Shown in pieces: positions 12,247 to 63,270 of a stretch of DNA of 64,000 nucleotides; the first letter of the stretch is position 1, and the number at the start of each line of letters is the position of its first letter. Under the pieces are notes generated by a model. That model saw only the letters and a list, made by a program, of their open reading frames with translations, was not told where the DNA came from and ran no database searches. The stretch lies in the NCBI RefSeq assembly GCF_902652985.1, contig NC_047019.1, positions 14,254,097-14,318,096 on the forward strand, written 5' to 3'. The translations under genes were made by a program, and so were the position numbers. This DNA is from Pecten maximus. Lineage: Eukaryota.

Positions 12247-15200
12247 GTATCCTTTAAAATATTGGTAAAAACATGCGGGTTATAGAATATAGAGATGGGT
12301 AATTATGTTGATACTGAAGTAGGTTTAGAGATTTTCTTGAAAATGTAAACATTGGAAGTCACGATTTCCTGATTCAATCAGACTCAAGGACTTCTCCTAT
12401 GAAACTTTGTTATATTCTATGATTGTATTGTCTATTTAATTTGTCTACTGAAGGACAAGTCATGATAATTATATAACATTCATTTTAAAGAAATGTTGTC
12501 AAAAAGACTACTGATGATGAAAATCAGCAACAGTTTGTAGTAAAAGTTGACAGAATTATGAAATGTAAAAGTTTAAAGTAATTAAGAAAAAAGATCTGTA
12601 TTTTGAAATTATTTATTGGTCCTGAGTTTGGTCAACTAAATATTTCCTCTCTATTTACCTTAATATGACTAAAGTGTTGTAGTGTTGCCTTGTAACTTTG
12701 CAATATATCAATATAATATGTGCATGTGGCAGGTTTTCATGGTGATATGGTCGCCTTCTAGCTTTGCGCTAGGGGGAATTTCCCTTTAGAGCGGCGGACC
12801 AGTAATCTGAAAGTTGATGGCCATGGTTTGATCCTCGTTGGAGGCACACTACTCTCTTTCCTGTTACAAATATATACATTGTATTTTATATGGTTTATAT
12901 ATAGACTTATATCCTATACAAAGATATTCTGATGGAAAATTCCCTGTGAATGCTGATGTTATGTATGTTATGTATTTTTGTAGTTTTCTTGAAATATTTA
13001 TTTAATAGATTATGTATTGCATGTTCTGTCTGGTATACCTTAACAGTATATAGAGCATCTCTTTAATCTCAAATTCGCTGCAAAGGACTTGGAGCGCAAT
13101 GCAAAACGAAGTGAAAAGTCAGAAAAAGAAGAAAAAACTAAATTAAAAAAGGTAACCAGTAGTTAAAATTGTTTATAGAATGCTGATAAAGGTCAGGTGA
13201 TGTAGACAATGTACTGGTAAGTACCGTAGATTTTTCCCATGTCAATATTTGAAGAAGAAAAAGGGCACTATACACAAATATTTATGGTAAGTATTATGGT
13301 TGTAACCATGTAACTATAAACATACACCTGTAGATCAGTATGGTAACACTATGGTCTATGGCCACCATATATAGATAAGTATGGTAACACCATATGACCA
13401 CCATGTAGATAAATATGGTAACACCATGGCCACCATGTAGATAAGTATGGTAACACCATGGTCATCATATTAGGTGGATATGGTAACACCACATGGTCGT
13501 CATATTAGGTAGATATGGTAACACCACATGGTCGTCATATTAGGTAGATATGGTAACACCACATGGTCGTCATATTAGGTAGATATGGTAACACCACATG
13601 GTCGTCATATTAGGTAGATATGGTAACACCATATATAGCCGCCATGTAGGTAAGTATGGTAACCATTAAATAAGTATGGTAACACCATGGTCTGCATGTA
13701 GATAAGTATGTATGGTTTTACCATGAACACCATGTAAGTAATGAAAATTTAGTTATCTAAAACATTTCAGTGTATACAGCGTAACGATAGTAAAAGAACT
13801 TACCTGTATCTGTATATACCTTTTTTAGGTCACCTGAGACAAAGTCTCAAGTGACCTATTCTAATTGCCTTTTGTCCGTCGTCGTGCGTCGTCCGTCGTG
13901 CGTCCGTAAACAATTTACATTTTCGACTTCTTCTCCAAAGCCCCTAAACCAAATTCAATGAAATTTGGCAGGAAGCTTTTATGGCTAAAGGTCAACCAAA
14001 ATTGTGAATTATATGGTCCCCACCCCCAAGGGGCCTGAGGGGCGGGGCTAAAAAGGGTCAAATTTACTAAAACTTCAAAAATCTTCTTCTCTACTCTCAG
14101 ATATGGTGGAATCAAACACTCTTCATAGATGGAAGGGTCTTAAGGTACTTTACCAAAATTGTGAATTTCATGACCCAGGGGTCTCACGTTTGCCCCTGGG
14201 GAGGGGGTAAACTTTACTATAGTTTATATAGGGAAATCACATTTTTGACTATAATTTGTTGGATTTCTATTGGAATTCATTCTAACTTGGTTAACATTAT
14301 CAGCATGGGAAAACAGATTGATGGTATACACATGTTGGCCTTGACTGACCCCCAGGGGCTGATGGGCGGGGCTAAAAAGGGTCAAATTTACTAAAACTTC
14401 AAAGATCTTCTTCTCTACTCTCAGATATGGTGGAATCAAACACTCTTCATAGATGGAAGAGTCTTAAGGTGCTTTACCAAAATTGTGAATTTCCTGACCC
14501 TGGGGTCTCACATTTGCCCCTGGGGAGGGGGTAAACTTTGCTATAGTTTATATAGGGAAATCACATATTTGACTATTGTTTGTTTGATTTCTATTGGAAT
14601 TCATTCTAACTTGGTTAACATTATCAGCTTGTGATTGCAGTTTGATGGTATACACATGTTGGCACTGACTGACCCCCAGGGGCTGATGGGTGGGGCTAAA
14701 AAGGGTCAAATTGACTAAAACTTCAAAAATCTTCTTTTCAAAACCCAATTAAGATAGAATCAAATACTCTTCATAGGTGGAAGGGTCTTATAGTGCTTTA
14801 CTAATGTTATGAATTTCATGACCCTGGGGTCACAAGTTTGCCCCTGGTGAGGGGGTAAACTTTACTATAGTTTATATAGGGAAATCACATTTTTGACAAT
14901 TATTTGTTTGATTTCTATTGGAATTCATTCTAACTTTGTTAACATTATCAGCATTGGATGACAGCTTAATGGTATATACCTGTTGGCCCTGACTGACCCC
15001 TAGGGACTGATGGGTGGGCTCAAAAGGGTCAATTAGATTAACTGAAATACTTCAAATCTCAGGTGACCGTTAAGGCCCATGGGCCTCTTGTTACACTTGA
15101 CATGCACTCCACTATACATACATTAGTGTATGTCTTCATGGAATGATCTGCATTGTAATCAAATCTATGTGATATATACATATACACTGTACATGAAATA

Positions 15201-34500: not shown

Positions 34501-37500
34501 TCTTAGATATACATAAATTGTTACTGACAAGTCAGTGTAATGATTTCCTGCCTTTGAAATGGAATTTCACAACTGAAAAGGTAAACTTTTGAACAGAAAC
34601 AAATTATTTTGGAAACTGTGATGGATTCTTATTATATCTTTTATACAAATCTGGAAAATACATGACATTCATGATCAGTCAATTGTTACACTATCACGAC
34701 TTGAGATTTTGAAATATGACCTTTACCTTTTAGACAAGGTCACCCTCCTCTGCTGAAGAAGAAACAAAATGATAGAGTATAACCTTGACATTTTACAAGA
34801 AAGTCATAAACTTGTACCTTGTAAAGCATTTTACAAATTATGACAAAAAAACAAAACAAAAAGCATTATAATTTTGAAATAATATTAAACCAGTGTATTA
34901 TGTTATATAAACTACATGTTTTAGATCTAAAAGATGTGAAAGATGTATTGGACCCCATGTCAAAGGTCAAATCGGGACTGGTGGCTGATGGGAAGGAAGT
35001 TAATCCTGTGGAACTAGAGGATGTAAATGTATTTGCTAAAATGATGGATCTTGTGGCAGAGGTAATCAATTTTTATGACAAATGATTGTGTAAACTGGTG
35101 TTATTATAACGAGAAAAGAAAAAAAAAATTTCTTGTTAATATTTTATATGCATTTGACAACTGATTAAAAAATGAAAATTCCATGCAACTAAACATTTCC
35201 CCTCTATATGATCTAATAATTCTGGGTTTTAGAAAGTTATAATGATAAATCAATTCTACTATTGATTAGTGTTATCTGGTATCATATAAAATGGAGTGGT
35301 GACCTTGACATTTTAGACAAGGTCACTCCCCTCTGCTGAAGAAATTGATATCAGAGTATAACCTTACATTTTAGGAGAAAGTCATAAACCTGTATAGTAA
35401 CTAATATGTGGTAATTAAAAGATCATTTAAATTTCACAGAATTTTCATGGAAATTAAATAAAATAACTACCTGAGATTTTGAAATATGACCTTGACCTTT
35501 TTCAGGTGAAGGTCTTACAAGTTTACCACAACAAGAGTAACGAAATGTTGGAGGGGAAGTATGTGTTCCCTCTAGACGAGATGGCCGCAGTGTGTGGGTT
35601 TGAAGCTTACATCAATGACAAGCATGTGGTAGGGGAGGTGAAGGAAAAAGAGACGGCACACAAGGAGTACAAGAAGGCCATTAGTGAGGGCCATGGAGCC
35701 TACCTCATGGACCAGGACGAAGAATCACCGGTATGTTTAAAACTTAAGCAGTTTCATATTAAAGAAGTTATGAAGTATCATTTCAGTGGCAAATTCTGGC
35801 AACAATATGTCGTCTGATAAAATTGGAAATGGTTTCTTTTGCCTTAGATTAATTTTTGAGCATATTTACATTTTGCAAGACTTTGTCTGGTTTTCTTTTG
35901 TTGTTTTTTTCGTTTTTTTTTTTTTTTCAATAAATAAATTTAAACCAAATGTGTATAAGATGGCACTTTCTTTACTGTATAGGGATGTATTTATGTCCCC
36001 ACCATGAAATAAGAGGGCATATACGTAGTGTTACCCATGTCCGTCCCGTCCCGATGTAAACTGTAACTAGCTATTCTCAGGAACTGCTGATGTGATGCTA
36101 ACCAAACTTTGTATATATAATGGGTATAATGTCGTGTTGTCCACCTAACCAAACTTTGTATATATAATGAGTATAATGTCGTGTTGTCCACCTAACCAAA
36201 CTTTGTATATATAATGAGTATAATGTTGTGTTGTCCATGTAACTCTTTATTCACGGATCAAACATCCAATACATCTGACATTGTTGTGTTTCGGGGTGTT
36301 TATTGGCAATATATCTTCTAATAGATTTTTACTTTGGATCTTACTTTTAATTACCATTGATAAGTAAAGAGTTCTTAATAATCTACCTTATACAAAATGT
36401 GAATGAGGAAGTTTTGATGTAAAGCAGTATTTCAGATGAAGTATTTGATAAATATAGATGATGGATTAGAATTGATGTCCTATATATATTGATATCTATA
36501 ACAATATATCTGTGTTATTTTGTAACCTTCACCTCTGATGTCCTATATATATTGATATCTATAACAATATATCTGTGTTATTTTGTAACCTTCACCTCTG
36601 ATGTCCTATTTATATCTATAACAATATATCTGTGTTATTTTGTAACCTTCACCTCTGATGGCCAATATTATTATATATTGATATTTATAACAATATATCT
36701 GTGTTATTTTGTAACCTTCACCTCTGATGTCCTATATATATTGATATCTATAACAATATATCTGTGTTATTTTGTAACCTACACCTCTGATGTCCTATTG
36801 ATATTGATATCTATAACAATATATCTGTGTTATTTTGTAACCTTCACCTCTGATGTCCTATTTATATCTATAACAATATATCTGTGTTATTTTGTAACCT
36901 TCACCTCTGATGTCCTATATATATTGATATCTATAACAATATATCTGTGTTATTTTGTAACCTTCACCTCTGATGACCTATTGATATCTATAACAATATA
37001 TCTGTGTTATTTTGTAACCTTCACCTCTGATGTCCTATATACAGTCAAACCTCGATGATTCGAACTTCGTTGATTCGAATTTCTCGCTGTATCGAACTTT
37101 TTGCTTGGTCCCGAATTTTCTCACTATATAACACTACTAACGAAACTATGTATGATTCGAATTTTTATAAATCGAAGTTTTCGATGTATCGAACTTTTTT
37201 CATGACCCGTTAGCTATGATATTATAGGTAATTGACATCTCATGATTCGAACAAAAAATTTACCTGTACTGACCACTGGACAGGTGTTTGTCGTGACCCC
37301 TGCGGCAAGATTTCACACCTCTCCCCCAAATGCCCTGACTGACAATAGGGATAACGATAGCGTGTGTTGTCACTCCCGGTCATGGGGTTTATTAATAATC
37401 AGATCAAATTGATAGATAAAAAGTGTATTTAGAAGCCATGACATTTAATCGCTCCGGTAAAACATTTCGGTAGTCGTCTCTGATCATCTCCGCCGCCATT

Positions 37501-40500
37501 GAAATCAGCGTTCGGTGAGTAAATTTTACGGAACTATAAAACAACCGGACCATTTTTAAACACGAACAATTAGCGATGGCTTCACTCATATTCAAAGTGT
37601 GACGTTTCAAACTTATACATAAATATCCAAGTAAATCGATTATTTGTCATTCAATCATGCATTCTCCAACCGATCGGCATTCCGTATTTTATATGCACAT
37701 AACGTAAACGCACGTGTCTTTAGCAGAAAAGCCTAACGACTTACGTAAGTGTGCATTGTACTTCTTTTGTTTTATCTGTTAAACGCGATATAAGTGTTTT
37801 GTAACCGATACATATTCTGTTTAATTATCAAGAAAACATCGATCTATTGTCAACCATGAATAATTCGAAGTCCCGCTGTATCGAAGTTTTTCTGTTAGTC
37901 CCTTGAACTTCGAAACATCGAAGTTTGACTGTATATTGATATCTATAACAATATATCTGTGTTATTTTGTAACCTTCACCTCTGATGTCCAATATTATTA
38001 TATATTGATATCTATAACAAAATGTCTGTGTTATTTTGTAACCTTCACCTCTGATGTCCTATTGATATCTATAACAATATATCTGTGTTATTTTGTAACC
38101 TTCACCTCTGATATCCTATTTATATCTATAACAATATATCTGTGTTATTCTATAACAATATATCTGTGTTATTTTGTAACCTTCACCTCTGATGTCCTAT
38201 ATATATTTATATCTATAACAATATATCTGTGTTATTTTGTAACCTTCACCTCTGATGTCCTATATATATTGATATCTATAACAATATATCTGTGTTATTT
38301 TGTAACCTTCACCTCTGATGTCCTGTATATATTGATATCTATAACAATATATCTGTGTTATTTTGTAACCTACACCTCTGATGTCCTATTGATATCTATA
38401 ACAATATATCTGTGTTATTTTGTAACCTTCACCTCTGATGTCCTATATATATTGATATCTATAACAATATATCTGTGTTATTTTGTAACCTTCACCTCTG
38501 ATGTCCTATAATGAAGCTTATGTATATAAGCTAAGTTTAAACTGACAAATCATAAGTCTATGTTTATTAATTCATATATTAATAAACCTTGATCTTTATA
38601 ATTATCAAGAAGTACTTGTGAGGCATATTGACTTATTCAGAGTGATACAATATAGATAGGCCCAAGTAGGGCCAGTTTGTTGACGGTTATGATATATACA
38701 GTATCGGGGCCGGGCAGGCCTAGGTCAATAAGTGATTTGATTGGTCAACAGAATTTGGCAAGCATCTTTTGTTTTAGTGGGGAATGGCTAACGCAGCGTT
38801 TTAATCAGCAATTTATAACCACTCATCTACAACATCTACGAATTTAAATCATGGATATTTCTTACGGTACAAGACTTCAGCATTTGAGATTCTCTCTATT
38901 TGAGAAGTTTGCAGACTGTGGATTGTTTTAATAGCAGTTGCTGAAACCACTTTTGTTCGGACCCTTTCCCCCCCGAGACCCGAGACGATGGCATCGACAA
39001 GGCAGGACAATACTTCATCCAGCAAACGCAGGAACCGATCTAATAATACGCCTTGGGACTCTAACAACCCAAAAAATTGGACTATCCAAAGACTAAAAAG
39101 TGAACTGGAAAATTTAGGAATTCACGGCTCATTCATGGGTATGACCAAAACGGCATTACGCAATCTCTACTTGGACAATGTGAATAGAGGAACCCAATCA
39201 ACGAACTATGAAATATTACCTCGTGTGAATAATGCTTCCGAGGAAGATCTTGGTAATAATGAGACTGACGATTTACCGTCAAGTAGTGCTTCACAACATA
39301 ATTCTAATGTGACCGAGGAACTACGTGCAGAAGCGGACCAAATCGCACAGTCATCCCAGTCAGGTAGTGATCAGTCGGCCCGTGCAACATCCCCGCCTGG
39401 TGGCGATAGCAGCAGCACAACGCGTAGGGATATTTCCAATATGGCGGCGCCCATGACAGATGTGCAAAATTTACAAAAAACGGTCATCGAGCTGCAACAA
39501 ACTGTGATTTCGATGATGAATGGCAGGAATACAAACCGTGAAATCACCAGTGGACATGCTTCCTCAGGATTTACATTATCTACAGCTATGGCGGCGATGA
39601 GGAACAATGAATGCGATAGCAACAGGATCTCTGCCACGTCAATGAATCCAGGTGGGTACAGTCTACCTCGTTCAAAATATGGCGTACCCGCCGAATGTAT
39701 TCCACATGTCGATGTCGTATCGGAGAACACACAAAGGAAGATATGGGAAGGTAGAGATATCAATCTAGCTAGCCTGTTAATTCCCTGTTTTGAGACGTGT
39801 CGGAATGCCGGTGACGATTTCGGGGGGTTACATGGTATTACTATAAACATAAATCAGAATGAAGATCGGGATCCACGCCTGAATAAAGCTTTGAGCATAG
39901 CAGAGTTCATTACTGCGTTTGGAAAATACAAAAGAGTACTGTGTACAAAATTCCCGGACCGCAGACCAGAATTAGACACATACGAGGCTAACATTATAGA
40001 AATTTCGAATATTTATGGCCCTCGTTTCTACGATTACCATTGCCAATTTTCTGCAAGGGCAGCAGCAGCATTGAGGGATAACAACATTAAAGTAGATTGG
40101 GCAGTGAAAGACAATGGCCTACTGAATATGGTTATTGGTAATACCAAAGCCAATACTTGCAATTTGTGTGGGTTGACTACTCATTCAACACCCTTCTGTC
40201 CACAACAGCGTAACAAATCGTGGAATAACAACAAACAGCAACAAGGGCGAAAGGATGTGGATAAGCATGGCCGTCCTAAAATCAAAGTCAATGGCCAAGA
40301 AGTTTGTAACAATTTCAACAACGGTAAATGCACACGGGGAGACAATTGTTTCTTTGCACACGTGTGTTCCAATTGTCAAGCCAACAACCATGGAGCTAAT
40401 GCGTGTAAGAAAAACAAACAACAATGACAAACGGTTATGCCTGACAGGCCCTCTACACCTTTAAACATTGAGAGGTTAGCCGAAGAATTACAGAACCATC

Positions 40501-43500
40501 CCGACAGGCATTTCGTGGACTATTTAATAGAAGGACTTAAGCAAGGTTTTGATACAAAGGTGTCAACTACCTCTCTTCCCACTAAGGAATGTAAGAACTT
40601 ACAATCTGCCAACAATAATGCTGCCATAGTAGATACTCTTATTTCCTCCGAGTTAGAGAAAGGGTTTTTATGTGGACCATTCCAACGACTTCCATTTGAG
40701 CATTACAGAGTCAGCCCCATTGGAGTTGCTATTGGGAAATACTCAAAGAAACCTCGATTGATCGTGGATCTATCTTCCCCTCATGAAGATACTGATCATC
40801 CATCCATCAATGAACTTATCGACAAAGAACAATGTTCATTAAGCTATGTTAAGATAGACGATGCGGTTAATATAATTCAATCATTAGGAAGAAATACTAC
40901 AATGTGTAAAACTGATATATCAGACGCGTTCAAACTGATACCTATTCATCCTAGTCAGTGGCATTTATTTTGTGTTCAGTGGAAGGGAAGCTATTATTTT
41001 TATAACAAGCTAGCATTCGGGTGCAGATCAAGCCCTAAGATTTTTGACACCCTATCAGAAGCCGTGTGTTGGATAGCACAGCACAATTACGGAATTTCCC
41101 ACATCATGCATTTGTTAGACGATTTCATCACTTTCGATGGCCCAGGCGTATGTGGGGAACGCAACATGGCTCTACTTTACCTGATTTTCAACAGATTAAA
41201 TATTCCCATGGCCAAACACAAAACTTGTGGACCAGAAACTGTCATAGAGTATTTGGGTATTATTTTGGATTCTATCAATATGGAGGCACGGTTACCAGTG
41301 GACAAATTGGTAAGAATTACAGAATTCTTGACTGACTTCCTAAGTAAGTCATCGTGTACCAAGAGGGAGATGCTACAATTGCTTGGTCACCTCAACTTTG
41401 CAAGTAGAGTCGTGATACCCGGTAGAGCATTCGTTTCCCACCTGATTCGATGTTCTACCACAGTTAAACACCTTCATCATTATATCAGGATAAACAATGA
41501 TTGTAGAGAGGATATTAGAATGTGGAGGCAATTCTTACTACATTGGAATGGTGTGTCTATGTTCTATAATACGCGAGTTATAACTTCTGATGACTTGCGT
41601 CTGTTCACAGATGCATCAGGTACTCGTGGATTTGGCGGTATATTTCAACAAGAGTGGTTCGCTGAACCATGGCCTACAAGTCTACGTGAATCGGTGTCGC
41701 AAGTAGATGAATTATCTATCGCGTTTAAGGAACTTTATCCGATTGTGGTAGCAGCATTATTGTGGGGTCACAAATGGGTTGGCCAGCGTATCGTATTTAT
41801 GTGTGATAACTCTGCTACAGTGGCTATTCTTCAGAAAGGCCGCTCCAAATCAGCTCACATTATGCCACTTATGAGAAGACTAACTTTGTGTGCTGCCACT
41901 CATAATTTCTGCATATTATCTAAACATGTCCCAGGTAGACACAATGTGATTGCTGATTCTCTGTCTCGATTACAGTTGCAGAAATTTCGACACCTGGTTC
42001 CAACAGCCTGCAAGTACCCACGCACAGTTCCAGCTCCAGCACACATCTTGTGGAGCTCCAGCCTGTAATTAAGGAGTTGTGGGATTCCGCGATAGCTCCC
42101 AGCACCAGATCGACGTATCAGACAGGTTTCAACTTGTTTATTAGATTCCTTCTAATGACAGGTGTTATAGTGTGTGCAAGTGCAGTTAAAGACATTCGTG
42201 TGACAGAAGACTTGTTGATTTATTTTGCCGCGAATTGCTTCACTAATAACTTATCTTACAGTACAGTTAAACTATATATTTGTGGCATTCGTTTCATGTG
42301 TCTTCAACAGAACATTAGTTATCCAGTCGGAACAGACTTGCCTCGTCTTTTTTCCATCATGAATGGTATCAAAAGATCACAAGCTAAGCCTGTCAAACCA
42401 CGTTACCCTGTTACATTTACGATTTTGAAACAAGTTTGTGACTTCTTGAGGAAGAACAATGGGAATTTCAACGATTTGTTATTGGAAACGGTGTGTACAG
42501 TTGCATTTTTTGGTTTCCTTAGATGTGGGGAGTTCACTGTAAATAACAATTTTGACTCTACTATTCATTTGTGCATGAAAGACTTAACCATTTTACAAGA
42601 TTGTGTGGTGTTGACACTGAAGTCGTCAAAAACTGACCCCTTCAGGAAAGGTATAGCCATTAAATTGTTCAAAATTGATCATGATATTTGCCCACATAAG
42701 GTGTGTAGCAAGTATGTCGCAGCAAGACTCATCATTTGTCATGGTCCGTCTCCAGCAGATCCTTTGCTTGTGACTCGAGATGGCAATGCTTTATCACGTT
42801 ATACCTTTATTAATATGTTTAAGCACACTCTAAAATGTGTAGGTATTGACCCAACAAATTATAATGGGCATTCATTCAGGATTGGCGCAGCTACTTCTGT
42901 GGCTGCTGTCAGCATAGAAGATCATATGATCAAAGTTTTAGGAAGATGGTCATCTGATGCCTACTGCAGATACATCAGAACGCCACAGGATGCCATTAGG
43001 CAAGCTCAGAAATCTATGGTATTGGCTAAAGGTAATGTTAATTAGGGTATAGCTTAACAATATATAGCTTATACCCCTAATTTACCTATAACATTTACTA
43101 ATATTTTTGGGGCACTCAGTTCAATTCAGTATCATTTAACTGAGTCTTGGACTCTCATTCAAAATTTTAATAGATTCAATTTTTCTTTTCATCCCCAAAA
43201 AATTATACTTGAGAAATCTTTACATTATATTGCAAGTATTATATTGTTATCATACTATTCCTACTGCTTTTTGCTGATGTATCATCCGAGGTACATAGGT
43301 GGAGAATAAGGAATTCATTTACAAATTAAGTTACATATTAATTATTACTTAAATCTTATTCGGAAGTATGTACATGCGTGTAGCTCAGCAAGCTACAACG
43401 AATGAGATTTAGGTATATTGTTTTCAACCTGCTCAAAGTCAGTTTTTTGGAACTCACCATTCCTTATTCGGACCTGTAGCTCAGCAAGCTTCACCGAGAT

Positions 43501-46500
43501 GAGGAATAGTATAAACGGGATGAATTATATTATCTTACTGCTGTATGACTGATTCCGCATCCAGACCTGGTAGCTCAGCAAGCTACCCTGTGATGGGGAA
43601 TTCGGCTCAATCCTAGTTAAGTTCAGATGTGGTCCTCTTCTGCATTCATATACTCATCAGTATAATCTAGCCAAGTACTGTTCATCCTCTCATATTGTTG
43701 ACGGTCTGCTAGACTCTTAGATGAGGACTCATACTGGACTCTAAACTATCTTTCTCCTGGGTGTCAGTTACCATTTTTTATACATGTATTTATCGTTCAA
43801 TCCAGGAGAAAGATATTTAGTTGTTATAATATATATATAGTAACTGAGTTGCCCTTTTTGCCAAACAATATATATGTAATAAGTTTAATAATATGTTCTG
43901 TTTGTTAAATGGAAATTGTCAAGTTCAGTCATGTTTTATGCATACAATAAATGTATATATGTTTATATCTGTCTTTTTGTGATTTGTGCAGTTTAAAATG
44001 AAGCTTATGTATATAAGCTAAGTTTAAACTGACAAATCATAAGTCTATGTTTATTAATTCATATATTAATAAACCTTGATCTTTATAATTATCAAGAAGT
44101 ACTTGTGAGGCATATTGACTTATTCAGAGTGATACAATATAGATAGGCCCAAGTAGGGCCAGTTTGTTTACGGTTATGATATATACAGTATCGGGGCCGG
44201 GCAGGCCTAGGTCAATAAGTGATTTGATTGGTCAACAGAATTTGGCAAGCATCTTTTGTTTTAGTGGGGAATGGCTAACGCAGCGTTTTAATCAGCAACC
44301 ACCACCATCCCCTGCCACCAACCAGATTTTTAACTACCGGTTTTAATTAACCTTTTCAGTGGCATGGGCATTGGAAGCGAGAGATAGTTAAAGCTTTATA
44401 CATGTTACATGATGATGTTTTCTATCTAGATATATGACACTCTTAACTATGGTGTTTTGTTTTGTTTGGTTCTTGGAGCAGTTACGATGTTAATAAATTT
44501 GGGACTTTTATGCTCATTCAATTGATGACTGAACTCTCATTCAAAATGTAATGATTCAATTTTCTTTCTCCCCAAAAATTTACTGAGAAATCTTACACTA
44601 TATGCTAGATTATATTGTTTTCTTCCCACGCTTTTCTGAGTGTATCATCCAGTACAGGTGCAGTTAGGTCATTTAAATTATTCATATTTTTACTTAACAT
44701 TTTTGGAAGTCATGTACATGCGTGTAGCTCAGCAAGCTACAAAATGAGATTGGGTATTGTTTTCAACTGCTCAAGTCAGTTTTTGGAATCCACATTTTAT
44801 TCGTGTACCACACTTTTACAAAATGAGATTTTTATAAAAGATACTTAAAAATTGTTTCTGTTTCCGCATCAATGGGAAATCCCGTGATGGGGAATTGGCT
44901 CTTCCCATTGTTGTTGGTCTGGTTCCTCCGGTACTCGTTTCTCCATAACCTCCCATTTTAAAGGTCCGGGGGGTTAATAGGATTAAGGGAAAAAAAAATT
45001 TTTCCCTTTTGTCATAAAAGTTTTATACTTCAAAAGGAAAAAATTTTTGTATTTTTATTGAAATAATTTCTTTTCAAAAATATTCTTTTTAAGTTAATAT
45101 ATTTAAATTTTTTTGAATTTTAAATTCAACATGTTTTTGCTTTTAAGTTTATTCAGTTCTTTTTTTTGTGATTTAAATTTTTACAAAATTGTGTTTTTTT
45201 TAATTTCGAGCGTTTAAAAAGAATTTAAAAAAGTGTTAATTTGAAAATTACCGGGGAAATTTCAAAAAGGGGGGGGAACAATTTTTTTCAAAAATGTAAT
45301 TGGGGGTTTTTTTCCCCGGGATATTTTAAAAATTTGGAAAGGGTTTTTTTGGGGGTTTTTTTTTTGGAAAAAAAGGGGAATTTTGGGGGGGGAAAAAAAC
45401 CCATAAATAAGGGAAAAACCTTTCCCTTTTAAAAATGGATTTTTAAAATTTTTTAAAAAAAAGTTTGTAACCTTCACCTCTGATGTCCTATTTATATCTA
45501 TAACAATATATCTGTGTTACTTTGTAACCTTCACCTCTGATGTCCTATTGACATCTATAACAATATATCTGTGTTATTTTGTAACTTTCACCTCTGATGT
45601 CCTATTGACAGGATGTTTTTACTGTAAGTGTGGGGAATGTTCCTGCCAAAGCTACTGTTGTCATCAAGATCACCTATGTCACAGAGCTGCAGGTTGAAGG
45701 TGACCTTGTCAGCTTCCGTCTCCCAGGCACCTTAGCACCATGGAAACAGAACTCTCAGAACACTGAGGTAATTATACAACCAAACCATAAAAAAATACTC
45801 TTGAAAGGAAAAATCACAGATAAAAATTCCATTGTGAAAACTGGACAGTTTGTCAACCCTTAACTGTGAACAAATTGTATCATCTCTATGACAATACATG
45901 ATTGTGTAAGGGAGACTGGACTGATGTTATAAAGAATTTTATCATGATTTTATGAGGAAAATTAACAGGTAATATGTATGTTACTACAACTGTTACAATT
46001 GACTATACAGTGAAACCTGTCTATACCAACCACTGCCTTGAATGACTTTCTGTAACATCCAACCATTGTCAACAGTGGCAAAATGCTCAACTGTCATGGC
46101 TGATACTATATTGTCTCTCTGTTATATCTGACACGTTTACTCAGTCCTGTACACGTTCAGTTAGGTCAGGTCTCTCTATACATGTATCCTTATTTTCTAC
46201 ACAGGATATCGAATGCACTGTCATGGTAGCTGTGGACATGCCCTTTGACCTCAAAAATATCCACAGCCCAACTCACAAAATTATGATTGCGGTATGTATA
46301 TAAACCTACTTATATGTTTATGTTCAGTTCTTCATTCCTTGGAAATCGATTCCGACATGTTTGGTTACTGTGATATTCCAACACTTAAATCACTATAAAT
46401 TATGACCTTTTTTTTCAAAAGAAATGAAAACAGATAACCAAAAAGATTGATTTCTAGCTTTTGAGCCATTACAATATGGAATATTCATGTAGGTGTGCAG

Positions 46501-49500
46501 TTGCCTGGTACTGATTGTAGGTCAGTGGTTTTTCTCCGGGTACTCTGGCTTTCCTCCACCTCCAAAGCCTGGCACGTCCTTAAATGACCCTGGGTGTTAA
46601 TAGGACTTTGAAGAAAACAAACAAAATTCACAATTGTTGTCAAATAAATAAAGTTTATATTCAAAAAGAAATAACCCGGTGTTTCTTGGTATTGAAATAA
46701 AATCTTACAGTCATAAAATTATTCTTATTGAAGTCTCCCAAAATATATTTGCAAAGATTCAATCAATTCCTGAGATACCTAAATTCACACAATGAATTAT
46801 GCTTTTGTAACGTTCTCAATTCAGTTCATTTTCTTCACATAAATTGTTATTGTAACCAGTGTGTATACAATACATGATTTGAATATTTTTGTAGGATTTC
46901 GATGGCGGTAAAGCAAAGAGAGTAGACAGCAGAAAGGTTTGACATTTTCTATCATACATTGCTGCAGCTGATATATATTGTATAAAGAACTTGTTTTAAC
47001 AATCTATTTCTAATTAACACTCACACTAAACCAGTAGATTTAATATGATGTGATATTCATTACACCTAAGATTTTGAGATTTTAATTCTATTAAGACTAA
47101 ATTCAATTTCTCAGGAAGTGCCTCAAATATTTCACGTGAAGTTTTCCTTTTATCCTAAGTTATGCAATTTAGATTGAACAAAAGGATGGCCGACATATAT
47201 TGCTTTATTGGCATCAGACAGTTAAGTTCTCTATTTCTCTGAAAGTCCTTTGAGGAATTTTGTTAGAATTTTATTGATAGAAAATCAAGATGACTGACAG
47301 AAGGCCAAGTTAGATTTTGAAGAACATGCTTACTTATTCAGCTCAAAGGATCTACAGCTCTCGTGGTGATGGATCCAGATCTACAAATAGGTGAGGGTTT
47401 CCATCTGCTTCTGGAGTTAGCCGAGGCTCATGTCCCTCGCATGTGGGTGGAGCAGAACGAAGAAAATACGTCTAATCAGGTGAGAGATATTCGCATTATA
47501 AAGTGGTTACCCTGATAATCTGAAAATTTTCTCCTTTAAAAAAGAATAATAATGAGTATGAGTCAGAAAATAATAGATATTTGTTTCTGAGGTAGGTTGG
47601 ATAAAATAATGAGTGGTTTGTGGTAATCTTATTTAAAATCCTATTTATGTACATGTCTCTAGTAATACCTGAATACCTGCCCAGAGAAAGAATGGATTGT
47701 CCTGTCCATTTCCCATCCATCTGTTAAACTTTTACCTTTCTTTGTTTCTCGGAGGAGGGGAGGGCTTGTTTTCTCACATACTTCACAGAGTTATCTCACG
47801 GTTGCTAGGGAAAAGATAAATCAATCAATCTCACACAGGGAGCGATGGGCATCATTTTACGTTGAGTAATCAAGTTGTAAATGATGACGTCATCAATTTT
47901 GAGGCACATTCCAAGGAAGATTGAAGATGGCGAGATAAAAAACTTTTATAAAAACTTACATTTGCTTGCATGGATGTAAGAAAAATAATCACAGATGGGT
48001 CTGTTCTGCGAACAAGGATATCTCGACCCTCGTGTAAGAGTTTGGCAAGCCTCGTGCTGACTGGCCAAACTCTTACACTTAGATATCCCCCTCAAAACAG
48101 ACCCATGATAGATTCTATTATACTTTATTAAACATTAATGTTTCACTTAGATTATTTTGTTTTTGTTATGAATTAATTTGGTTAATATTTTTCCTAGGCA
48201 TGCATGTTGACATTCTATCCGGAGTTTGAAGCTTGTGAGGACAATCAGGCAGAGGTTATCCTCATGCTGGATCTGTCCAACTCCATGACGGATAAGGGAC
48301 TGACTGAGGCCAAGAAAGTGCTCCTCCTCATCCTACACTACCTACCCAAAACATGGACATTCAATGTCATCATCTTCGGGACAAGTAAGTACAAAATTAA
48401 AACTTCAATATATCACCTCCTGGACCATGAGTAAGTCTGAGAAACCAGGATACAATTACAATTACAATTATAACAAACAATTACAAAAACAAAGAAAAAA
48501 TAATTAGAAAAAAAGGAATCAACTATGCTGGCATATGACTGATTGAGAACTTTGAAACAAAGACCAAAGCAAAAAAATCTTCTTTTTTTTTTTTAAAACT
48601 AAGCTAGCATATTAATATGACTGATGACAACTCTGAATTGAAATATATTAGACAGTGTTCTAGCTGAATGGGTGAATTTTTGTTGTCTTAGGTTAATTGG
48701 AGTCTGGCTCTATTAGATTAATGATCATGATATTAATATATTTCTTCTATCTTCATCAGCTTTTCGTGAACTTTTCCCATCGAGCCAACCAAAGAACAAA
48801 TCCAATGCCACGGCAGCTGAAGTTCTGATACAGGTCAGTACACAAACAACACATTAGCAAATTCGGGAGAATTAAACTTTTTTCAAAGCTCTTCAGATCA
48901 GAATCTGCTTTTGTAATAATCTTTCAAGGATCACCTTAATGAGTAAATGGGCTGTGTGAACATTAAGGATCAAATTATGGTTATAATAATACATCTGGAA
49001 TATTTTTATGGAAAGCAAGATTTGAGGGAAATGTTTATCATAAGAGGATTACAATGTATGAATTGTGATAAATTAAAACAATCATTGTATAAATAGGTAG
49101 GATCTTACAAAGGAATAGCATAACAACCCGCAAACAATCCAGTCACTGCCATTTCTTCAGTGTCATTTACTCCAACAATGTTAGAGAGGTTCAACACGGC
49201 GAGAACTTTTGACAGATGCAGTTGACACAATAAGGTCAAATGATAAATCGGCCAGCCAGCGGCCACTTATGTTATAGGAGTACCGTGTTATTATGTTATT
49301 GATAAGAAATGTCTGTTTTTATTTGTAGTCTGTGGATGCAAATATGGGAAATACGGATTTGTACCGACCTTTACACTCATTTTACCTCCTCAAACCGGAG
49401 AACACATTACGGAACATTTTCCTTGTGTCTGACGGGCATATCAACCATCAAGATGTTACCATGGATACAGTGCACAAAAACTCCCAGCATACACGAGTGT

Positions 49501-52500
49501 TCACATTTGGTGTTAGGTATGTAACTTGTATCAACTTTCGTTCTCTATTTCGAAATATTAGTTCAAGTTAGTAGACTTGCATATTAAAAAAAATTACTCA
49601 TTGATTGTGTCCCTTCCTGAAAAACAATTTTCATTCTCGTTTCTATAGGTAACCTATGCATTGTTGGATATAGTTCATTCTGTTGCTATGAAATGTGATA
49701 ACTGTTATCAATTCCTGTACTAAAAGATTGCTCTTCCCTTAAAAAACTCCACAATTCTTATTCTTGTTTTCTGTTTTGTTCTTTATAGCAATGTGATGAA
49801 CCGTCACCTGCTTGGAGCACTGGCTCGCGTCGGGTCAGGGGCTTTTGAGGGATTTGACAGTAAAGTGAAATCAAAGTGGGAAGACAAGGTAAAATTCATC
49901 ATTATTTGGAAAAGTATGGAAAAAAAAGAAAAAAGTTTGTTATCAAAATGCGTAAAATCATATTGTGTTGTGAAAGATGAGGAATCAAACCCAGGTCTCC
50001 CACATGATAATTCCTGGCTTTACTGCCCGGCTAAAAAAGCATGCTCCGTCAGCTGAGTGACAGATACTGTACTTAACAATTAAATCACTACACTGAAATG
50101 CTCCTTTTACAGTATAAAGAAACTCCAAGTTTTTTTTTCCAGGTAAAGTCACAGATTGCTAAAGCAGGACAGCCTGGGTTGACCTCAGTGGCCGTCTCTT
50201 GGCAACAGGAAGATGGTGCTCCGCCTCCAAAACAAGCACCCAATCAAATCACAGCTCTCTTCAGTGGATCAAGGATGGTAGTTTACGGATTTGTTCAGAA
50301 CTGTTCAAGTGTAAGTGACTTGATAATGAAGTCTGGTAAGAAAGTCTATTTTGATGTGGAGGATCATCATATCAAAAAAGGAAAAATAATACAGCAATGT
50401 AAATTCCAATTAATCAAGACCATTAAGTATCACGTGTTTGAGATGTTTGACCAATTAATCGAGTAAGAAATAATTAATCAAGTTTTGTCAGATATGCTCA
50501 ACATCACAATAGATGAAAGAAATTAGCTGATTGGTATAACATGCGAAAAAAACAATCGACTGCTTGATTGTGGTTTCGCTTATATGATGAAAAATGCAGT
50601 AAGCACTACGAAAGAATGTAAAAAATGTATAAAAATTTTAAAATTGCAGTTTGACACATAGAGTTTTCCAAAAGATTCTGGTCAGAATTAGCAGACTGCA
50701 CAATAAACAATATATTCAAGTAAAGCTGGACTTGTTCAATGAAAAAAGTTATGAAAGAAAACTTTTTGTTACTTTCCTACAGGCAACACTGACCGCTGAA
50801 ATAGGTGACCAAGAGATAACAGCTTTAGTGACGAAATCTGACCGCTACGTTACCAAAGGAAAGGTAAAACTCCCATTATCTTATATTTTCTATCTTATCT
50901 ATAATTACCTCTAGTAATATTACCACTTGTGTTAGAGTTTGCCAACTCCTAGAAGATTTGTTTTAATATATTGTTAATGAATGCCCTTTCAAATTAAAGA
51001 TTTTTTTTAAAGAAGTATAAATTAATCCTGATAAATTTTCGATGACATTAAATTCAGCAATTATATAATTGTTCTGATAAGGATACTCCACCATTTACGT
51101 GTAGGGAATTTCTTTTATCAAGTAACTTGTTGATGTTACAGATTCTGCACCGTTTGGCAGCTAAAGCAATCATCCGCGACTGGGAGGACGGACTTCTATC
51201 ACCTGATGGCCTCAATCAGCAGGTGAGATTTCCAGTGGATAGATTTCAGAAAATATTGAATGTATGTTCCATTGGTACCAGGGTCAATGTGTAGGTAACT
51301 GATGATAGTTATCAGTTATATCTGAGCTTGTTTGTGTTCATATCATCATATCTGACACCTTTGTGTGTCCGTCAAAATTTGACAGGAGTTTTTGTTATGG
51401 TATTGTCTGGGTTTCCGTGTTTAACTTTTTTGTCCTCTGTCCTCTCTGTTTTCAACCAACTCTTTATCTCTTTTAAAACTTTATAGGCTTTGTAATCATG
51501 ATTTGGAGTTGTGTTTTTCCGAGTAGTAGTTTCATTTGTCAATTTTTATATATCTGTTCGAAAGGTGGTGAAAGAATTTTTAGTCCGGCATTGTCTGTCC
51601 ATCCAGGGTAAACTTTTGTTTGTCTGAAGATCTTCAATCAATCTTAAAACTTGGTAGGCTTTATATAGATTCACAAGATTTTTTTTTCTGATAAGCTTTT
51701 TATTCAGCCTTTTTAAGGTACTGCCCTTTGTTTATTTTCACAGTTGTTGTGGGGCTACGGTGGCCGAGTGGTTAAGGTGTCCCGACACTTTATCACTAGC
51801 CCTCCACCTCTGGGTTGCGAGTTCAAAACCTATGTGGGGCAGTTGCCAGGTACTGACCGAAGGTCGGTGGATTTTCTCCGGGTACTCCGGCTTTCCTCCA
51901 CCTCCAAACCTGGCATGTCCTTAAATGACCTTGGCTGTTAATAGGACGTTAAACAATATAAACTAAACTAAATAAAAGTTTATTTTAGTTTACTGATCTA
52001 TTTTGAAAGAGTTATTGCCCTTTGTTGATTTTTTTCCTGTGAGCTTAGTGTTACAAGGGACAGGTGTGTATTGTTCTGCCCATTCTTTTTATACCCTCTT
52101 CGTATTACCCATGTCAGTCCATCCCATTGCATCCTAACACCATATTACACCTGGTTACATTCTGGTGGACATTGGTCAAGTTAAAAGGGTCAAACACTGA
52201 CTCCTCATTCATGTCTTACAGACATTTTCTAGTTTTATGTTAAATCTTATCAGCCCCTGTTATAACTGTTACAGTCTGCCATATTCCTAATTGATTTTTC
52301 AGAGGATGAAGATGGACTTGAAAGACTATGTTATAAAGCTGAGCAAGGAGTTCTGTATAGTGACTCAGCTAACAAGCTTCATTGCAGTGGAAAAACGAGA
52401 AAAGGTTTGTGGGGGAACTAATATCATGTGATTTGTGTGCTTCAATATATACTTAAAGCCAATCACAGACCTAGTACTGGGAACCCTGATATTAATTATA

Positions 52501-60060: not shown

Positions 60061-60469
60061 TAGTTTGAAGTGTGATTGGAGGTTAAAATGAAGTGTTACT
60101 AGGCCCTCTCTATGTTGTCTAATTGGTGTGGATGTTCAAAGAAACAGAATCTAAGTTCACATTGAATTCCCCCACTGTATAATGCATTAGGAGCAGGTGA
60201 TAAGGTAAAGGAGGATGTGGAGAATGTAGCAACTTCAAAGTCAGCATATGTAGAGGTACAACAGTGTTTGTTGATGAAGCGTTTACAATGTGGTCTCTGT
60301 AATATTATTGCATAATTTCAAATGACATAAAAAATTATGGTGACATATCCATCCGTATGTGATATTTCTTTAGACCAATACCTTGAGAGTGCCGTCATCT
60401 TTCTTCATGAGAAGGGTGACATGGAAAGGGCACATTGCCATTTATTTCTTCCTCTGTGCTGTTATCATT

Positions 60470-61440
60470 GGTTTGATATGTTCTCACCTTCTGAGGTCCT
60501 TCCCTGACCTACATTGTATACGTGGTTTGATGTGTTCTCACCTTCTGAGGTCCTTCCCTGACCTACATTGTATACGTGGTTTGATGTGTTCTCACCTTCT
60601 GAGGTCCTTCCCTGACCTACATTGTATACGTGGTTTGATGTGTTCTCACCGTCTGAGGTCCTTCCCTGACCTACATTGTATACGTGGTTTGATGTGTTCT
60701 CACCTTCTGAGGTCCTTCCCTGACCTACATTGTATACGTGGTTTGATGTGTTCTCACCGTCTGAGGTCCTTCCCTGACCTACATTGTATACGTGGTTTGA
60801 TGTGTTCTCACCTTCTGAGGTCCTTCCCTGACCTACATTGTATACGTGGTTTGATGTGTTCTCACCTTCTGAGGTCCTTCCCTGACCTACATTGTATACG
60901 TGGTTTGATGTGTTCTCACCTTCTGAGGTCCTTCCCTGACCTACATTGTATACGTGGTTTGATGTGTTCTCACCGTCTGAGGTCCTTCCCTGACCTACAT
61001 TGTATACGTGGTTTGATGTGTTCTCACCGTCTGAGGTCCTTCCCTGACCTACATTGTATACGTGGTTTGATGTGTTCTCACCTTCTGAGGTCCTTCCCTG
61101 ACCTACATTGTATACGTGGTTTGATGTGTTCTCACCGTCTGAGGTCCTTCCCTGACCTACATTGTATACGTGGTTTGATGTGTTCTCACCTTCTGAGGTC
61201 CTTCCCTGACCTACATTGTATACGTGGTTTGATGTGTTCTCACCTTCTGAGGTCCTTCCCTGACCTACATTGTATACGTGGTTTGATGTGTTCTCACCGT
61301 CTGAGGTCCTTCCCTGACCTACATTGTATACGTGGTTTGATGTGTTCTCACCTTCTGAGGTCCTTCCCTGACCTACATTGTATACGTGGTTTGATGTGTT
61401 CTCACCTTCTGAGGTCCTTCCCTGACCTACATTGTATACG
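60470..61440. repeat. Satellite with a 54-bp unit, about 18 copies (ctacattgtatacgtggtttgatgtgttctcacc(t/g)tctgaggtccttccctgac), with two alternating variants
   Basis: ORF 60383..61519 (378 aa of MCSHLLRSFPDLHCIRGL repeats) is a repeat translation. The unit is a multiple of 3, so the frame stays open. Confidence 0.9.
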
Positions 61441-61499
61441 TGTGTTCCTAATGTGTGTCATCAATGTTCCACAAACAAAGGGACAGCAGGCAATAATCA

Positions 61500-62880
61500 T
61501 CCAAATATTACATAAATAACTTGACCACAGTATGAGGTGCTGGGCTGCCAATAAATAATTTGACCACAATATGAAGTGCTGGGTTGCCAATAAATAATTT
61601 GACCACAATATGAAGTGCTGGGTTGCCAATAAATTATTTGACCACAATATGAGGTGCTGGGTTGCCAATAAATAACTTGACCACAGTATGAGGTGCTGGG
61701 CTGCCAATAAATAATTTGACCACAGTATGAGGTGCTGGGTTGCCAATAAATAATTTGACCACAATATGAAGTGCTGGGTTGCCAATAAATAATTTGACCA
61801 CAATATGAGGTGCTGGGTTGCCAATAAATAATTTGACCACAGTATGAGGTGCTGGGTTGCCAATAAATTATTTGACCACAATATGAGGTGCTGGGTTGCC
61901 AATAAATAATTTGACCACAGTATGAGGTGCTGGGCTGCCAATAAATAATTTGACCACAATATGAGGTGCTGGGCTGCCAATAAATAATTTGACCACAATA
62001 TGAGGGGCTGGGTTGCCAATACATTATTTGACCACAATATGAGGTGCTGGGCTGCCAATAAATAATTTGACCACAGTATGAGGTGCTGGGCTGCCAATAA
62101 ATAATTTGACCACAATATGAGGTGCTGGGTTGCCAATAAATAATTTGACCACAGTATGAGGTGCTGGGCTGCCAATAAATAATTTGACCACAGTATGAGG
62201 TGCTGGGCTGCCAATAAATAATTTGACCACAATATGAAGTGCTGGGTTGCCAATAAATAACTTGACCACAGTATGAGGTGCTGGGTTGCCAATAAATAAC
62301 TCGACCACAATATGAAGTGCTGGGCTGCCAATAATTAATTTGACCACAGTATGAGGTGCTGGGCTGCCAATAAATAATTTGACCACAATATGAAGTGCTG
62401 GGTTGCCAATAAATAATTTGACCACAGTATGAGGTGCTGGGCTGCCAATAATTAATTTGACCACAGTATGAGGTGCTGGGCTGCCAATAAATAATTCGAC
62501 TACAGTATGAGGTGCTGGGCTGCCAATAAATAATTTTACCACAGTACGAGGTGCTGGGCTGCCAATAAATAATTTGACCACAGTATGAGGTGCTGGCCAT
62601 GGGCTGCCAATAAATAATTTCATCAGAGTATGAGGTGCTGGGCTGCCAATAATTAATTTGACCACAGTATGAGCTGCTGGGCTGCCAATAAATAAATTGA
62701 CCGCATAATGAAGTGCTGGGTTGCCAATAAATATTTTGACCACAGTATGAGGTGCTAGACTGCCAATAAATAATTTGACCACAGTATGAGGTGCTGGGCT
62801 GCCAATAAGTAATTTGACCACAGTATGAGGTGCTGGGCTGCCAATAAATAATTTGACCACAGTATGAGGTACTTGGCTGC
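61500..62880. repeat. Satellite with a 39-bp unit, about 35 copies (aataaataatttgaccacagtatgaggtgctgggctgcc)
   Basis: The minus ORFs 61402..62331, 61497..62600, 61634..61840 and 62024..62860 are all repeat translations. Confidence 0.9.
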
Positions 62881-63037: not shown

Positions 63038-63270
63038 GGACTGGGTTGGCCGAGTGGTTAAGGTGTCCCAACACTTTATCACTAGCCCTCCACCTCTGGG
63101 TTGCGAGTTCGAAACCTACGTGGGGCAGTTGCCAGGTATACGTACTGACTGTAGACCAGTGGTTTTTCTCCGGGTACTCCAGCTTTCCTCCACCTCCAAA
63201 ACCTGGCACGTCCTTAAATGACCCTGGCTGTTAATAGGACATTAAACAAAACCAAACCAAATTGAATAAC
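63038..63270 (+). mobile_element. tRNA-derived SINE family 1, copy 4 (full length)
   Basis: GGGACTGGGTTGGCCGAGTGGTTAAGGTGTCCCAACAC…GGGTTGCGAGTTCGAAACC…CCGGGTACTCCAGCTTTCCTCCACCTCC…aaacaaaaccaaaccaaattg. ORFs 63018..63209 and 63046..63234 are SINE translations. Confidence 0.8.

Follow-up and report, generated by a model that had tools for sequence, protein, structure and literature searches.

A probable Ngaro-like tyrosine-recombinase retrotransposon in an intronic satellite of the scallop Pecten maximus

A 64,000-nucleotide stretch of Pecten maximus DNA, referred to here as the window (NC_047019.1, positions 14,254,097 to 14,318,096 of the forward strand), carries a copy of a Ngaro-like tyrosine-recombinase retrotransposon of the order DIRS. 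Its lineage occurs widely among bivalves and is closest to zebrafish Ngaro1; to this identification as a whole we assign a probability of roughly 85%. The copy sits in sense orientation within a 57/63-bp satellite, in an intron of a VIT-domain gene. The copy is an ordinary further member of an already known family, and existing knowledge of that family is unchanged by it; the original prediction had held such elements to be rarely annotated in mollusc genomes, which overstates the case. Ngaro has been reported in molluscs, with 53 instances in Lottia (PMC4157794), elements in bivalves (PMC10294476), and the Ngaro-like DIRS6_CGi and DIRS7_CGi from Crassostrea gigas in Repbase (PMC6681497, supplementary lists). 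On the + strand, the anatomy of the element is A1, 5'UTR, gag, RT/RNase H, YR, B1, A2, spacer, and B2. The segment 38510-44298 provides a clean coding consensus seed for the Ngaro1-like family in scallops.

Three long uninterrupted ORFs lie on the + strand in the canonical order, as had been read from the sequence at the outset:

38988-40427, + strand: ORF1, Gag-like, 479 aa, with CCHC (40158-40199), CCCH (40305-40361) and CCHC (40365-40406) zinc fingers
40425-40427, + strand: gag stop TGA followed by C, a candidate readthrough site; ORF2 is in the same frame, 9 nt downstream
40437-42068, + strand: ORF2, 543 aa, with RT at about 40740-41264 (Pfam RVT_1) and RNase H at about 41601-41969
42050-43045, + strand: ORF3, tyrosine recombinase (YR), 331 aa, in the -1 frame relative to ORF2; frame open from 41957, catalytic region about 42491-42979

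The motifs that had been quoted for these ORFs are real. ORF1 carries CX2CX4HX4C fingers at residues 391 and 460 and a CX8CX5CX3H finger at 440 (Pfam zf-CCCH is found), and shares 31-57% identity with its counterparts in bivalve relatives. LLDDF and TDAS are present in ORF2, in which RNase H ends at residue 511 of 543, and the R, HxxR, Y signature of tyrosine recombinases is visible in ORF3 as FLRCGEF, HSFRIG and YCRYIR. ORF3 aligns over its whole length to the YR ORFs of relatives, and its Pfam Phage_integrase match falls below the cut-off (E 3.6e-4). Searches of PDB sequences with ORF2, single or as a profile, returned weak RT matches only, none reaching into the RNase H part, and nothing was found with ORF3; Rfam (E up to 1) and ARAGORN likewise found nothing in 38000-46000. 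A bacterial promoter and terminator scan was set aside, having no meaning for a eukaryote.

The way in which the three ORFs are joined is shared with related loci. The gag TGA followed by C is kept in 7 of 7 loci compared, all of which have the 0/0/-1 frame layout—stop codons in the UGA-C and UGA-CUAG contexts are known to leak (bioRxiv 10.1101/2021.04.18.440353). The overlap of the YR ORF with ORF2, also noted originally, measures 19 nt in the -1 frame, and no conserved slippery heptamer was found there among the compared loci. In the relative L006, stop and start overlap as ATGA at the ORF2/ORF3 joint.

Placement of the element with Ngaro rather than DIRS1-type elements, as originally proposed, is borne out by the RT, RNase H and YR, each of which scores best against all of the available published Ngaro-like references. 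In RT BLAST against DIRS, Ngaro, PAT and VIPER references—small published alignments of conserved cores, as throughout these comparisons—10 of 10 Ngaro references ranked above all 29 others; the best was Ngaro1_DR (51% identity, E 2e-38), and the top non-Ngaro match scored 53 bits. A neighbour-joining RT tree places the copy as sister to Ngaro1_DR within the Ngaro clade, with 100% bootstrap at both nodes. The RNase H (ORF2 residues 389-511) aligns end to end with that of Ngaro1_DR (46% identity, E 5e-31), with all five Ngaro references on top. For the YR, the seven best matches are Ngaro (DIRS22_NV, 39% identity, E 4e-34), with scores of up to 113 bits; VIPER references reach at most 35 bits for RT and 23 bits for YR and RNase H. 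The expected lack of a methyltransferase also held: RVT_1 is the sole Pfam domain in ORF2, and ORF3 yields nothing beyond the integrase match. No other ORF of at least 50 aa with coding character occurs in the element, and no inverted repeats were found in or around it (seed 12 scan and self-BLAST). The Ngaro call therefore holds.

Other identities, namely a DIRS1-like element, a PAT-like element, a Crypton or a host gene that has been domesticated, are exceedingly unlikely. In the YR comparison DIRS1_CGi, whose YR is PAT-like, does fall within the Ngaro range, at 69 bits, and in RefSeq ORF2 is entered as an ordinary gene coding for protein; however, the RT and RNase H separate cleanly from the DIRS, PAT and VIPER references, there is no methyltransferase, ITR or ICR, and the presence of an RT means that the element is not a Crypton. 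Domestication is also at odds with the distribution of the relatives, whose sites are not syntenic and fall in introns of unrelated genes, and which form multi-member clusters. A protein search with ORF2 gave 1148 matches, and the named relatives among the matches listed are from bivalves, apart from one bacterial symbiont MAG entry. ORF2 is 100% identical to the P. maximus RefSeq 'uncharacterized protein LOC117314606', which shows that gene to be a transposon ORF.

Comparison with known systems gives the same picture. Zebrafish Ngaro1 (Repbase Ngaro1_DR; the family of Goodwin & Poulter 2004, per PMC6681497) is the nearest reference in RT, RNase H and the RT tree, and has the same gag, RT/RNase H, YR order and no methyltransferase, but its host belongs to a different phylum. 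Some vertebrate Ngaro elements carry a fourth (hydrolase) ORF, whereas the scallop element does not. The Pacific oyster elements DIRS6_CGi and DIRS7_CGi likewise have a bivalve host and fall in the same superfamily by RT, RNase H and YR; however, their RT cores are only 32-35% identical to that of the scallop element and they sit on other branches of the Ngaro clade, so the scallop element represents a separate sub-lineage that is Ngaro1-like. DIRS1-like elements (Dictyostelium DIRS-1 and metazoan relatives) are also tyrosine-recombinase retrotransposons with overlapping ORFs, have short species-specific nucleotides at both junctions (PMC7192593), and use an internal copy of the circle junction to restore their ends, much as we propose below. 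The scallop element has none of their inverted terminal repeats, internal complementary region or methyltransferase, and its RT shares 20-29% identity with the DIRS-like references listed. Split direct repeats and a YR are also features of PAT-like elements (PAT, Kangaroo, Toc); these, however, encode a methyltransferase and fall with DIRS1 in RT trees (PMC4157794), neither of which applies to the scallop element.

The coding region is bounded by the first members of two repeat pairs, of which the A pair is in good condition:

38510-38811, + strand: A1, 5' terminal repeat, 302 bp, 99.7% identical to A2
38515-38532, + strand: 5'-terminal palindrome AGCTTAT-gtat-ATAAGCT, 5 nt inside A; A2 copy at 44002-44019
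38738-38748, + strand: TGATTGGTCAA, a CCAAT-box-like motif in A and candidate promoter element; second copy at 44225-44235
43997-44298, + strand: A2, internal copy of A, 302 bp, a repeat of A1

These are direct repeats with a single mismatch, as first described, although their length is 302 bp and not 309 bp. They match at 301 of 302 positions (the sole mismatch is G38682 versus T44169), and A occurs at these two places only within the window. One difference in 302 bp indicates that the A1-A2 part is young, in agreement with the recent insertion originally suggested. The terminal palindrome folds with a z of -3.6, and its pairing is kept in other scallops via changes on both sides: Argopecten has GGCTTAT..ATAAGCC and Mizuhopecten GGTTTAT..ATAAACC at the same position.

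The 3' part of the copy is in a very different state; it is listed here together with the two flanks of the element:

43132-43996, + strand: B1, internal repeat adjoining A2; only its first ~480 bp has a recognisable partner in B2
43380-43586, + strand: hairpin GTAGCTCAGCAAGCT[A/T]C in B1, three copies about 95 nt apart (starts 43380, 43476 and 43570)
44299-44513, + strand: spacer between A2 and B2, 215 nt, starting with CCACCACCATCCCC (44299-44312)
44514 to about 44905, + strand: recognisable part of B2, riddled with small deletions relative to B1
44884-45459, no strand assigned: anomalous stretch; 44884-45298 copies 46487-47006 with many deletions, and homopolymer-rich junk comes next
37870-38509, no strand assigned: left flank, host 57/63-bp satellite array, ending in GATGTCCTAT right before the element
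45460-45628, no strand assigned: right flank, the same 57/63-bp satellite resumed, with a VIT-domain exon next

Of the predicted A1...B1-A2-B2 layout, the junction of B1 with A2 stands, while B2 is parted from A2 by the spacer—the B1-A2-B2 block is thus not contiguous—and the match between B1 and B2 is weak. BLAST aligns only 43132-43470 with 44514-44803, at 77.7%; in its core, B2 shows 36 deletion events and 14 substitutions relative to B1, and its segments score z values of 21, 25 and 5.8 in comparison with shuffles. Taken at face value (~78% identity, about half of B1, and apart from A2), B2 leaves the copy without an intact 3' end. Position 44930, given originally as the end of the element, is roughly where B2 stops being recognisable, and is no demonstrated terminus. 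We had also considered B2 to be collinear with the whole of B1 to about 45181, followed by garbled satellite in register, and dropped this after segment tests: 44960-45200 scored z -0.4 to 0.8 against B1 and the junk z 2.5 at best against the satellite, while the same segments scored z 3.9-9.2 against 46487-47006.

Judging from its error profile, the stretch with B2 and the 3' junction is probably an unpolished or misjoined low-fidelity patch of the assembly, which past B2 would lie outside the element. The copy of 46487-47006, whose source lies 1.6 kb downstream, differs from that source by 67 deletion events versus 58 substitutions, whereas SINE copies in the window that are truly old differ by 12-16 substitutions and 1-2 indels. 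Within the 64 kb, the anomalous stretch alone stands out for its homopolymers. The P. maximus assembly was made with wtdbg2 and its gaps were closed in the Arrow polishing step (PMC7191990), which together with the excess of deletions and the homopolymer outlier argues for an artefact. The artefact reading leaves one thing without account, namely that the patch carries a copy of 46487-47006. A rival reading is that the damage is real—B2 cut after ~480 bp, heavily mutated, and joined to a duplicated nearby piece (a SINE-like module plus flank, as in 46487-47006)—and the element would then be a dead relic whose ORFs are intact only through youth. This is the literal reading of the assembled sequence, rearrangements are common in satellite-rich DNA, and related loci are often without the 3' repeat block; we nevertheless consider it rather improbable, as the decay would have to be confined to 1.1 kb between an A2 that is 99.7% identical to A1 and clean downstream satellite, the differences are mostly single-base deletions and homopolymer runs, and true diverged repeats in the window are dominated by substitutions. 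With B2 and the 3' end in an apparent low-fidelity patch, the original description of the copy as intact and possibly active stands for A1 through A2 (38510-44298) only, and not for B2 or the 3' terminus. The ~1.1 kb of low-fidelity sequence is flagged here; it lies in a chromosome-level assembly and could mislead repeat annotation.

The split-repeat layout is seen in pristine form in a Mytilus edulis relative (L005), the single clean comparator for the spacer layout. This locus has the same order of A1, ORFs, B1A2, spacer and B2, with A repeats of 170 bp and B repeats of 499 bp that are 100% identical within each pair; B1 adjoins A2, and a 96-nt spacer precedes B2. The textbook Ngaro layout, as described (PMC9210276, PMC8547959), is B1A2B2 without a spacer, in contrast to the 215 nt and 96 nt found here. 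The first 14 nt of the scallop spacer, CCACCACCWTCCCC, recur directly after A2 in L005, and conservation across two distantly related bivalves points to a constrained, inherited architecture and not an accidental tandem. The motif CCACCACCATCCCC has no further occurrence on the + strand of the window or of L001-L005, and is absent from L006 and L007 as well (+ strand scanned). In a paralogous empty site of L005 the flanks meet, with AA at both junctions; the insertion has AA on both sides and no target-site duplication, making it a direct example of duplication-free insertion.

A quite unlikely alternative is that A2, spacer and B2 are a separate tandem copy, either internally deleted or a solo A-B remnant, with A-ORFs-B as the basic unit. 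When an Argopecten locus (L002) is compared with its paralogous empty site, the insertion is cleanly A...B and lacks A2 and B2, and isolated AB repeats are described for Ngaro in Cafeteria (PMC8547959). In Mytilus, however, comparison with the empty site shows the whole A1...B2 block to have been inserted as one unit; the scallop spacer has no similarity to the internal region or to the rest of the element, and its start is conserved. It counts against our main reading that the full split-repeat form is not the commonest genomic state in this small sample, since five of the seven related loci are without A2-spacer-B2, some of these with open ORFs; the post-A2 motif, terminal palindrome and split repeats were mostly not found in L001, L003, L004, L006 and L007.

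Returning to the split-repeat architecture, replication may proceed as follows. Transcription would start in A1; Gag would end at the leaky UGA-C, readthrough of which would give Gag-RT/RNase H, and YR would be made from the -1 frame. The internal B1/A2 joint could preserve the junction that arises when the element circularises through its ends, B2 and A1; in the published Ngaro/PAT model, full ends would be rebuilt from such a joint where the transcript or cDNA is incomplete at its termini. The recombinase might then insert the circle at a short A-run by conservative recombination. We tentatively suggest, at well below even odds, that the loci form an undescribed bivalve Ngaro1-like sub-lineage with a conserved architecture: an A2/B2 spacer led by CCACCACCWTCCCC, a compensated 5' palindrome, iterated B hairpins, a UGA-C readthrough Gag-Pol, and recombinase-mediated A-run insertion, often in tandem-repeat DNA. 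If so, the conserved non-coding pieces would serve in cis, as sites of priming or circularisation and as recombinase sites; to our knowledge, no such sites are known for any Ngaro element. The Mytilus comparison offers candidate cis-elements (the C-rich post-A2 motif, the terminal palindrome and the leaky gag stop) as well as the duplication-free insertion, and both give testable leads on Ngaro replication, which is poorly understood. Upstream of gag, the TGATTGGTCAA 11-mer is also found in Argopecten L002 and Ostrea L004.

On the evidence of its sequence, the element, which runs from 38510 to at least 44298 on the forward strand, is a Ngaro-like retrotransposon by the criteria of PMC4157794 and PMC9210276. 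We compared its reverse transcriptase (RT), RNase H, and tyrosine recombinase (YR) with the published core alignments of DIRS, Ngaro, PAT, and VIPER elements (Ribeiro et al. 2019, PMC6681497, supplementary files 16-18), and Ngaro sequences were the best matches throughout. In the RT comparison the top ranks are held by all ten of the ten Ngaro-like references, with Ngaro1_DR at 51% identity (E 2e-38), the remaining Ngaro references at 82-98 bits, and the best non-Ngaro reference at 53 bits; a neighbour-joining tree of 40 RT sequences places the element within the Ngaro clade (100% bootstrap) as sister to zebrafish Ngaro1 (100% bootstrap). The RNase H (ORF2 residues 389-511) aligns end to end with Ngaro1_DR at 46% identity (E 5e-31), and 5/5 Ngaro references rank above every DIRS and VIPER reference. 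For the YR the best seven matches are Ngaro-like (DIRS22_NV, 39% identity, E 4e-34), with one PAT-like sequence mixed in further down. Pfam recognizes RVT_1 in ORF2 and, below threshold, Phage_integrase in ORF3; it detects no methyltransferase in the ORFs—nor is there space for one—and neither a fourth ORF nor inverted terminal repeats (ITRs) were found in the element. Identities of the DIRS1, PAT, or VIPER type were ruled out on RT, RNase H, methyltransferase, and ITR evidence, and the original prediction of a Ngaro-type rather than a DIRS1-type element is borne out by the three rankings and by the missing methyltransferase and ITRs. Its companion claim, that intact YR retrotransposons are rarely annotated in molluscs, is overstated in view of the literature: 53 Ngaro instances are counted in Lottia (PMC4157794), Ngaro is noted in bivalves (PMC10294476), and Crassostrea gigas is represented in Repbase by Ngaro-like entries (PMC6681497 lists), so the scallop copy adds a member to a known group.

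The three uninterrupted ORFs that had been predicted are present, as are the A repeats, and are arranged as follows:

38510-38811, + strand, A1 repeat, 302 bp
38988-40427, + strand, ORF1 (Gag), 479 aa
40437-42068, + strand, ORF2 (RT/RNase H), 543 aa
42050-43045, + strand, ORF3 (YR), 331 aa from a GTG, frame open from 41957
43997-44298, + strand, A2 repeat, 302 bp

The expected motifs are also in place: Gag carries zinc fingers of the form CX2CX4HX4C (residues 391 and 460) and CX8CX5CX3H (residue 440; Pfam zf-CCCH), ORF2 has the LLDDF and TDAS…NVIADSLSR motifs, and ORF3 has the R, HxxR, and Y residues of the recombinase. Over all 543 residues ORF2 is 100% identical to the NCBI entry 'uncharacterized protein LOC117314606 [Pecten maximus]'. 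The A pair is a real direct repeat with a single mismatch (G38682 versus T44169), as first described, although its length is 302 rather than 309 bp; a 23-mer from A occurs at A1 and A2 alone, where chance would give none.

Under the proposed model the transcript would begin within A1 and finish within B2, and translation of the element would involve a leaky gag stop. In 7/7 loci (window 40425-40428 and the related loci L001-L006) gag ends in TGA followed by C, with RT in the same frame; the triplet after TGA is CAA in the scallop element, and the relatives have CTA, CTC, or CTG there. UGA-C is an established leaky context, as is UGA-CUAG; together with the conserved in-frame TGA-C this suggests programmed readthrough, by which a Gag-RT/RNase H product would be made. 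No conserved slippery site that would explain YR translation was found, and the frame plan—gag and RT/RNase H in one frame, YR in the -1 frame—is kept in all seven fetched loci (L001-L007).

The 3' end is of a different character. The predicted B1/B2 pair is not a clean repeat: the BLAST alignment is limited to 43132-43470 against 44514-44803, with 77.7% identity, and within this core there are 14 substitutions, while B2 lacks 53 bases in 36 separate events and has 4 extra. Similarity to B1 is strong up to about 44900 (z 21, 25, 5.8) and gone beyond. From there, 44884-45298 is collinear with 46487-47006 (overall z 11; segments 9.2, 3.9, and 6.7 over 44960-45200), a SINE-like module plus its own private flank 1.6 kb downstream, and the differences from it include 67 deletion events and 58 substitutions; true diverged copies of the module at other places in the window, taken as a control, show 12-16 substitutions but just 1-2 indel events. 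The rest, up to 45459, is homopolymer-rich, with 60-76% of bases in runs of at least three against a mean of 22%, and is the sole outlier of this kind in the window. The anomalous stretch has a perfect A2 to its left and clean satellite to its right, and the published assembly was made with wtdbg2, with PacBio reads that span gaps used to fill them in the Arrow polishing step (PMC7191990). From the deletion-rich differences, the homopolymer outlier, the clean edges, and the assembly method, we judge the stretch to be a patch of the assembly that is misjoined or of low fidelity, a reading that leaves the copy of 46487-47006 inside it unaccounted for. The element, first called apparently intact, is thus demonstrably so for 38510-44298; its spacer, B2, and 3' junction are not judgeable from this sequence.

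The SINE-like module itself (about 130 bp; 82-87% identity; …TTCTCCGGGTACTC…CCTCCACCTCCAAA…TTAATAGGAC…) has these copies, and a degraded one lies near 30304:

9113-9236, + strand, SINE-like module
46497-46628, + strand, SINE-like module
51839-51967, + strand, SINE-like module
63125-63263, + strand, SINE-like module

The most informative relative is L005 from Mytilus edulis, in which the A pair and the B pair are each 100% identical:

5403-5572, A1
10593-11091, B1, running straight into A2
11090-11259, A2
96 nt between A2 and B2, spacer
11356-11854, B2

Nearby paralogous host sequence (12787-12924) has both flanks joined, an empty site, so the inserted unit is the whole A1...B2 block. The junctions (marked by a slash) are ...CAAC/AATGG... 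and ...TATAAA/CTGTC..., the empty site is ...CAAG AA CTGTC..., and the internal B1/A2 joint is ...TATAAATGG...; judged against this paralogous site, the insertion has no target-site duplication. The junctions look as conservative recombination across a short run of A would leave them, and such duplication-free recombination fits a proposal made for DIRS elements (PMC7192593). A2-spacer-B2 is missing from 5/7 related loci, some with open ORFs, and in Argopecten L002 comparison with a paralogous empty site shows a clean A...B insertion, without A2 or B2 (3824-4007, 9359-9513, 12672-13010). Loci of this kind, L002 included, may have arisen by B1 x B2 recombination or may represent a second integrated form; the sample is small. 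The ORF2 matches listed are 54-78% identical, and those with a named source (Mytilus, Saccostrea, Argopecten, Ostrea, Mizuhopecten) are all from bivalves bar one: P0072, a homologue with 59% identity, is filed under a MAG of 'Candidatus Thiodiazotropha' obtained from the clam Ctena orbiculata and probably represents host DNA that was binned with the symbiont genome.

Several non-coding features are common to species. The textbook Ngaro layout has no spacer, whereas the scallop element and L005 both have one after A2, opening with CCACCACCATCCCC in scallop (44299-44312) and CCACCACCTTCCCC in L005 (11260-11273); the common pattern, CCACCACC[A/T]TCCCC, is otherwise absent from the + strand of the window and L001-L005, and from that of L006 and L007. 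In four species the first bases of the element are AA(T)G, and 5 nt inside A lies a palindrome:

38515-38532 and 44002-44019, Pecten, arms AGCTTAT/ATAAGCT
4010-4027, Argopecten L002, arms GGCTTAT/ATAAGCC
6119-6136, Mizuhopecten L003, arms GGTTTAT/ATAAACC

Pairing is kept in the three scallop species, with compensatory changes at 2/7 pairs. Pecten, Argopecten, and Ostrea also have a CCAAT-box-like TGATTGGTCAA in common in their A regions. The spacer motif, terminal palindrome, and leaky gag stop may be new in a Ngaro1-like bivalve lineage, as far as these few loci indicate. Within B an invariant hairpin, GTAGCTCAGCAAGCT[A/T]C (the GTAGCTCAGCAAGCTAC hairpin), recurs every ~95 nt at 43380, 43476, and 43570, and again at 44724; at the same position in Argopecten L002 another palindromic unit, 41 nt long, is present four times (8897-9157). 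The hairpins and 41-nt units could be recombinase or packaging sites.

The element is flanked by satellite and followed by coding sequence:

36500-37100 and 37870-38509, 57/63-bp satellite, left side
about 45460-45628, 57/63-bp satellite resuming, right side
45610-45740, + strand, VIT-domain exon
50098-50466, + strand, further coding-looking ORF

Since the right-hand satellite is directly followed by an exon that, once translated, matches the Pfam VIT domain at its end, the insertion is intronic and on the sense strand, and the host gene is, by this match, a VIT-domain gene. A search of the 64-kb window found no further fragments of the element. The left satellite is broken up by a MITE-like insert of ~900 bp (37037-37936) edged by inverted repeats of 32 nt with 91% complementarity. 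Tandem-repeat arrays hold or adjoin the element and two relatives (Mizuhopecten L003, 4020-6121; Ostrea L004, 3507-4467 and 13990-15515), which may reflect insertion preference for, or survival in, such DNA. Minisatellite arrays at 60383-62860 give long spurious ORFs on both strands.
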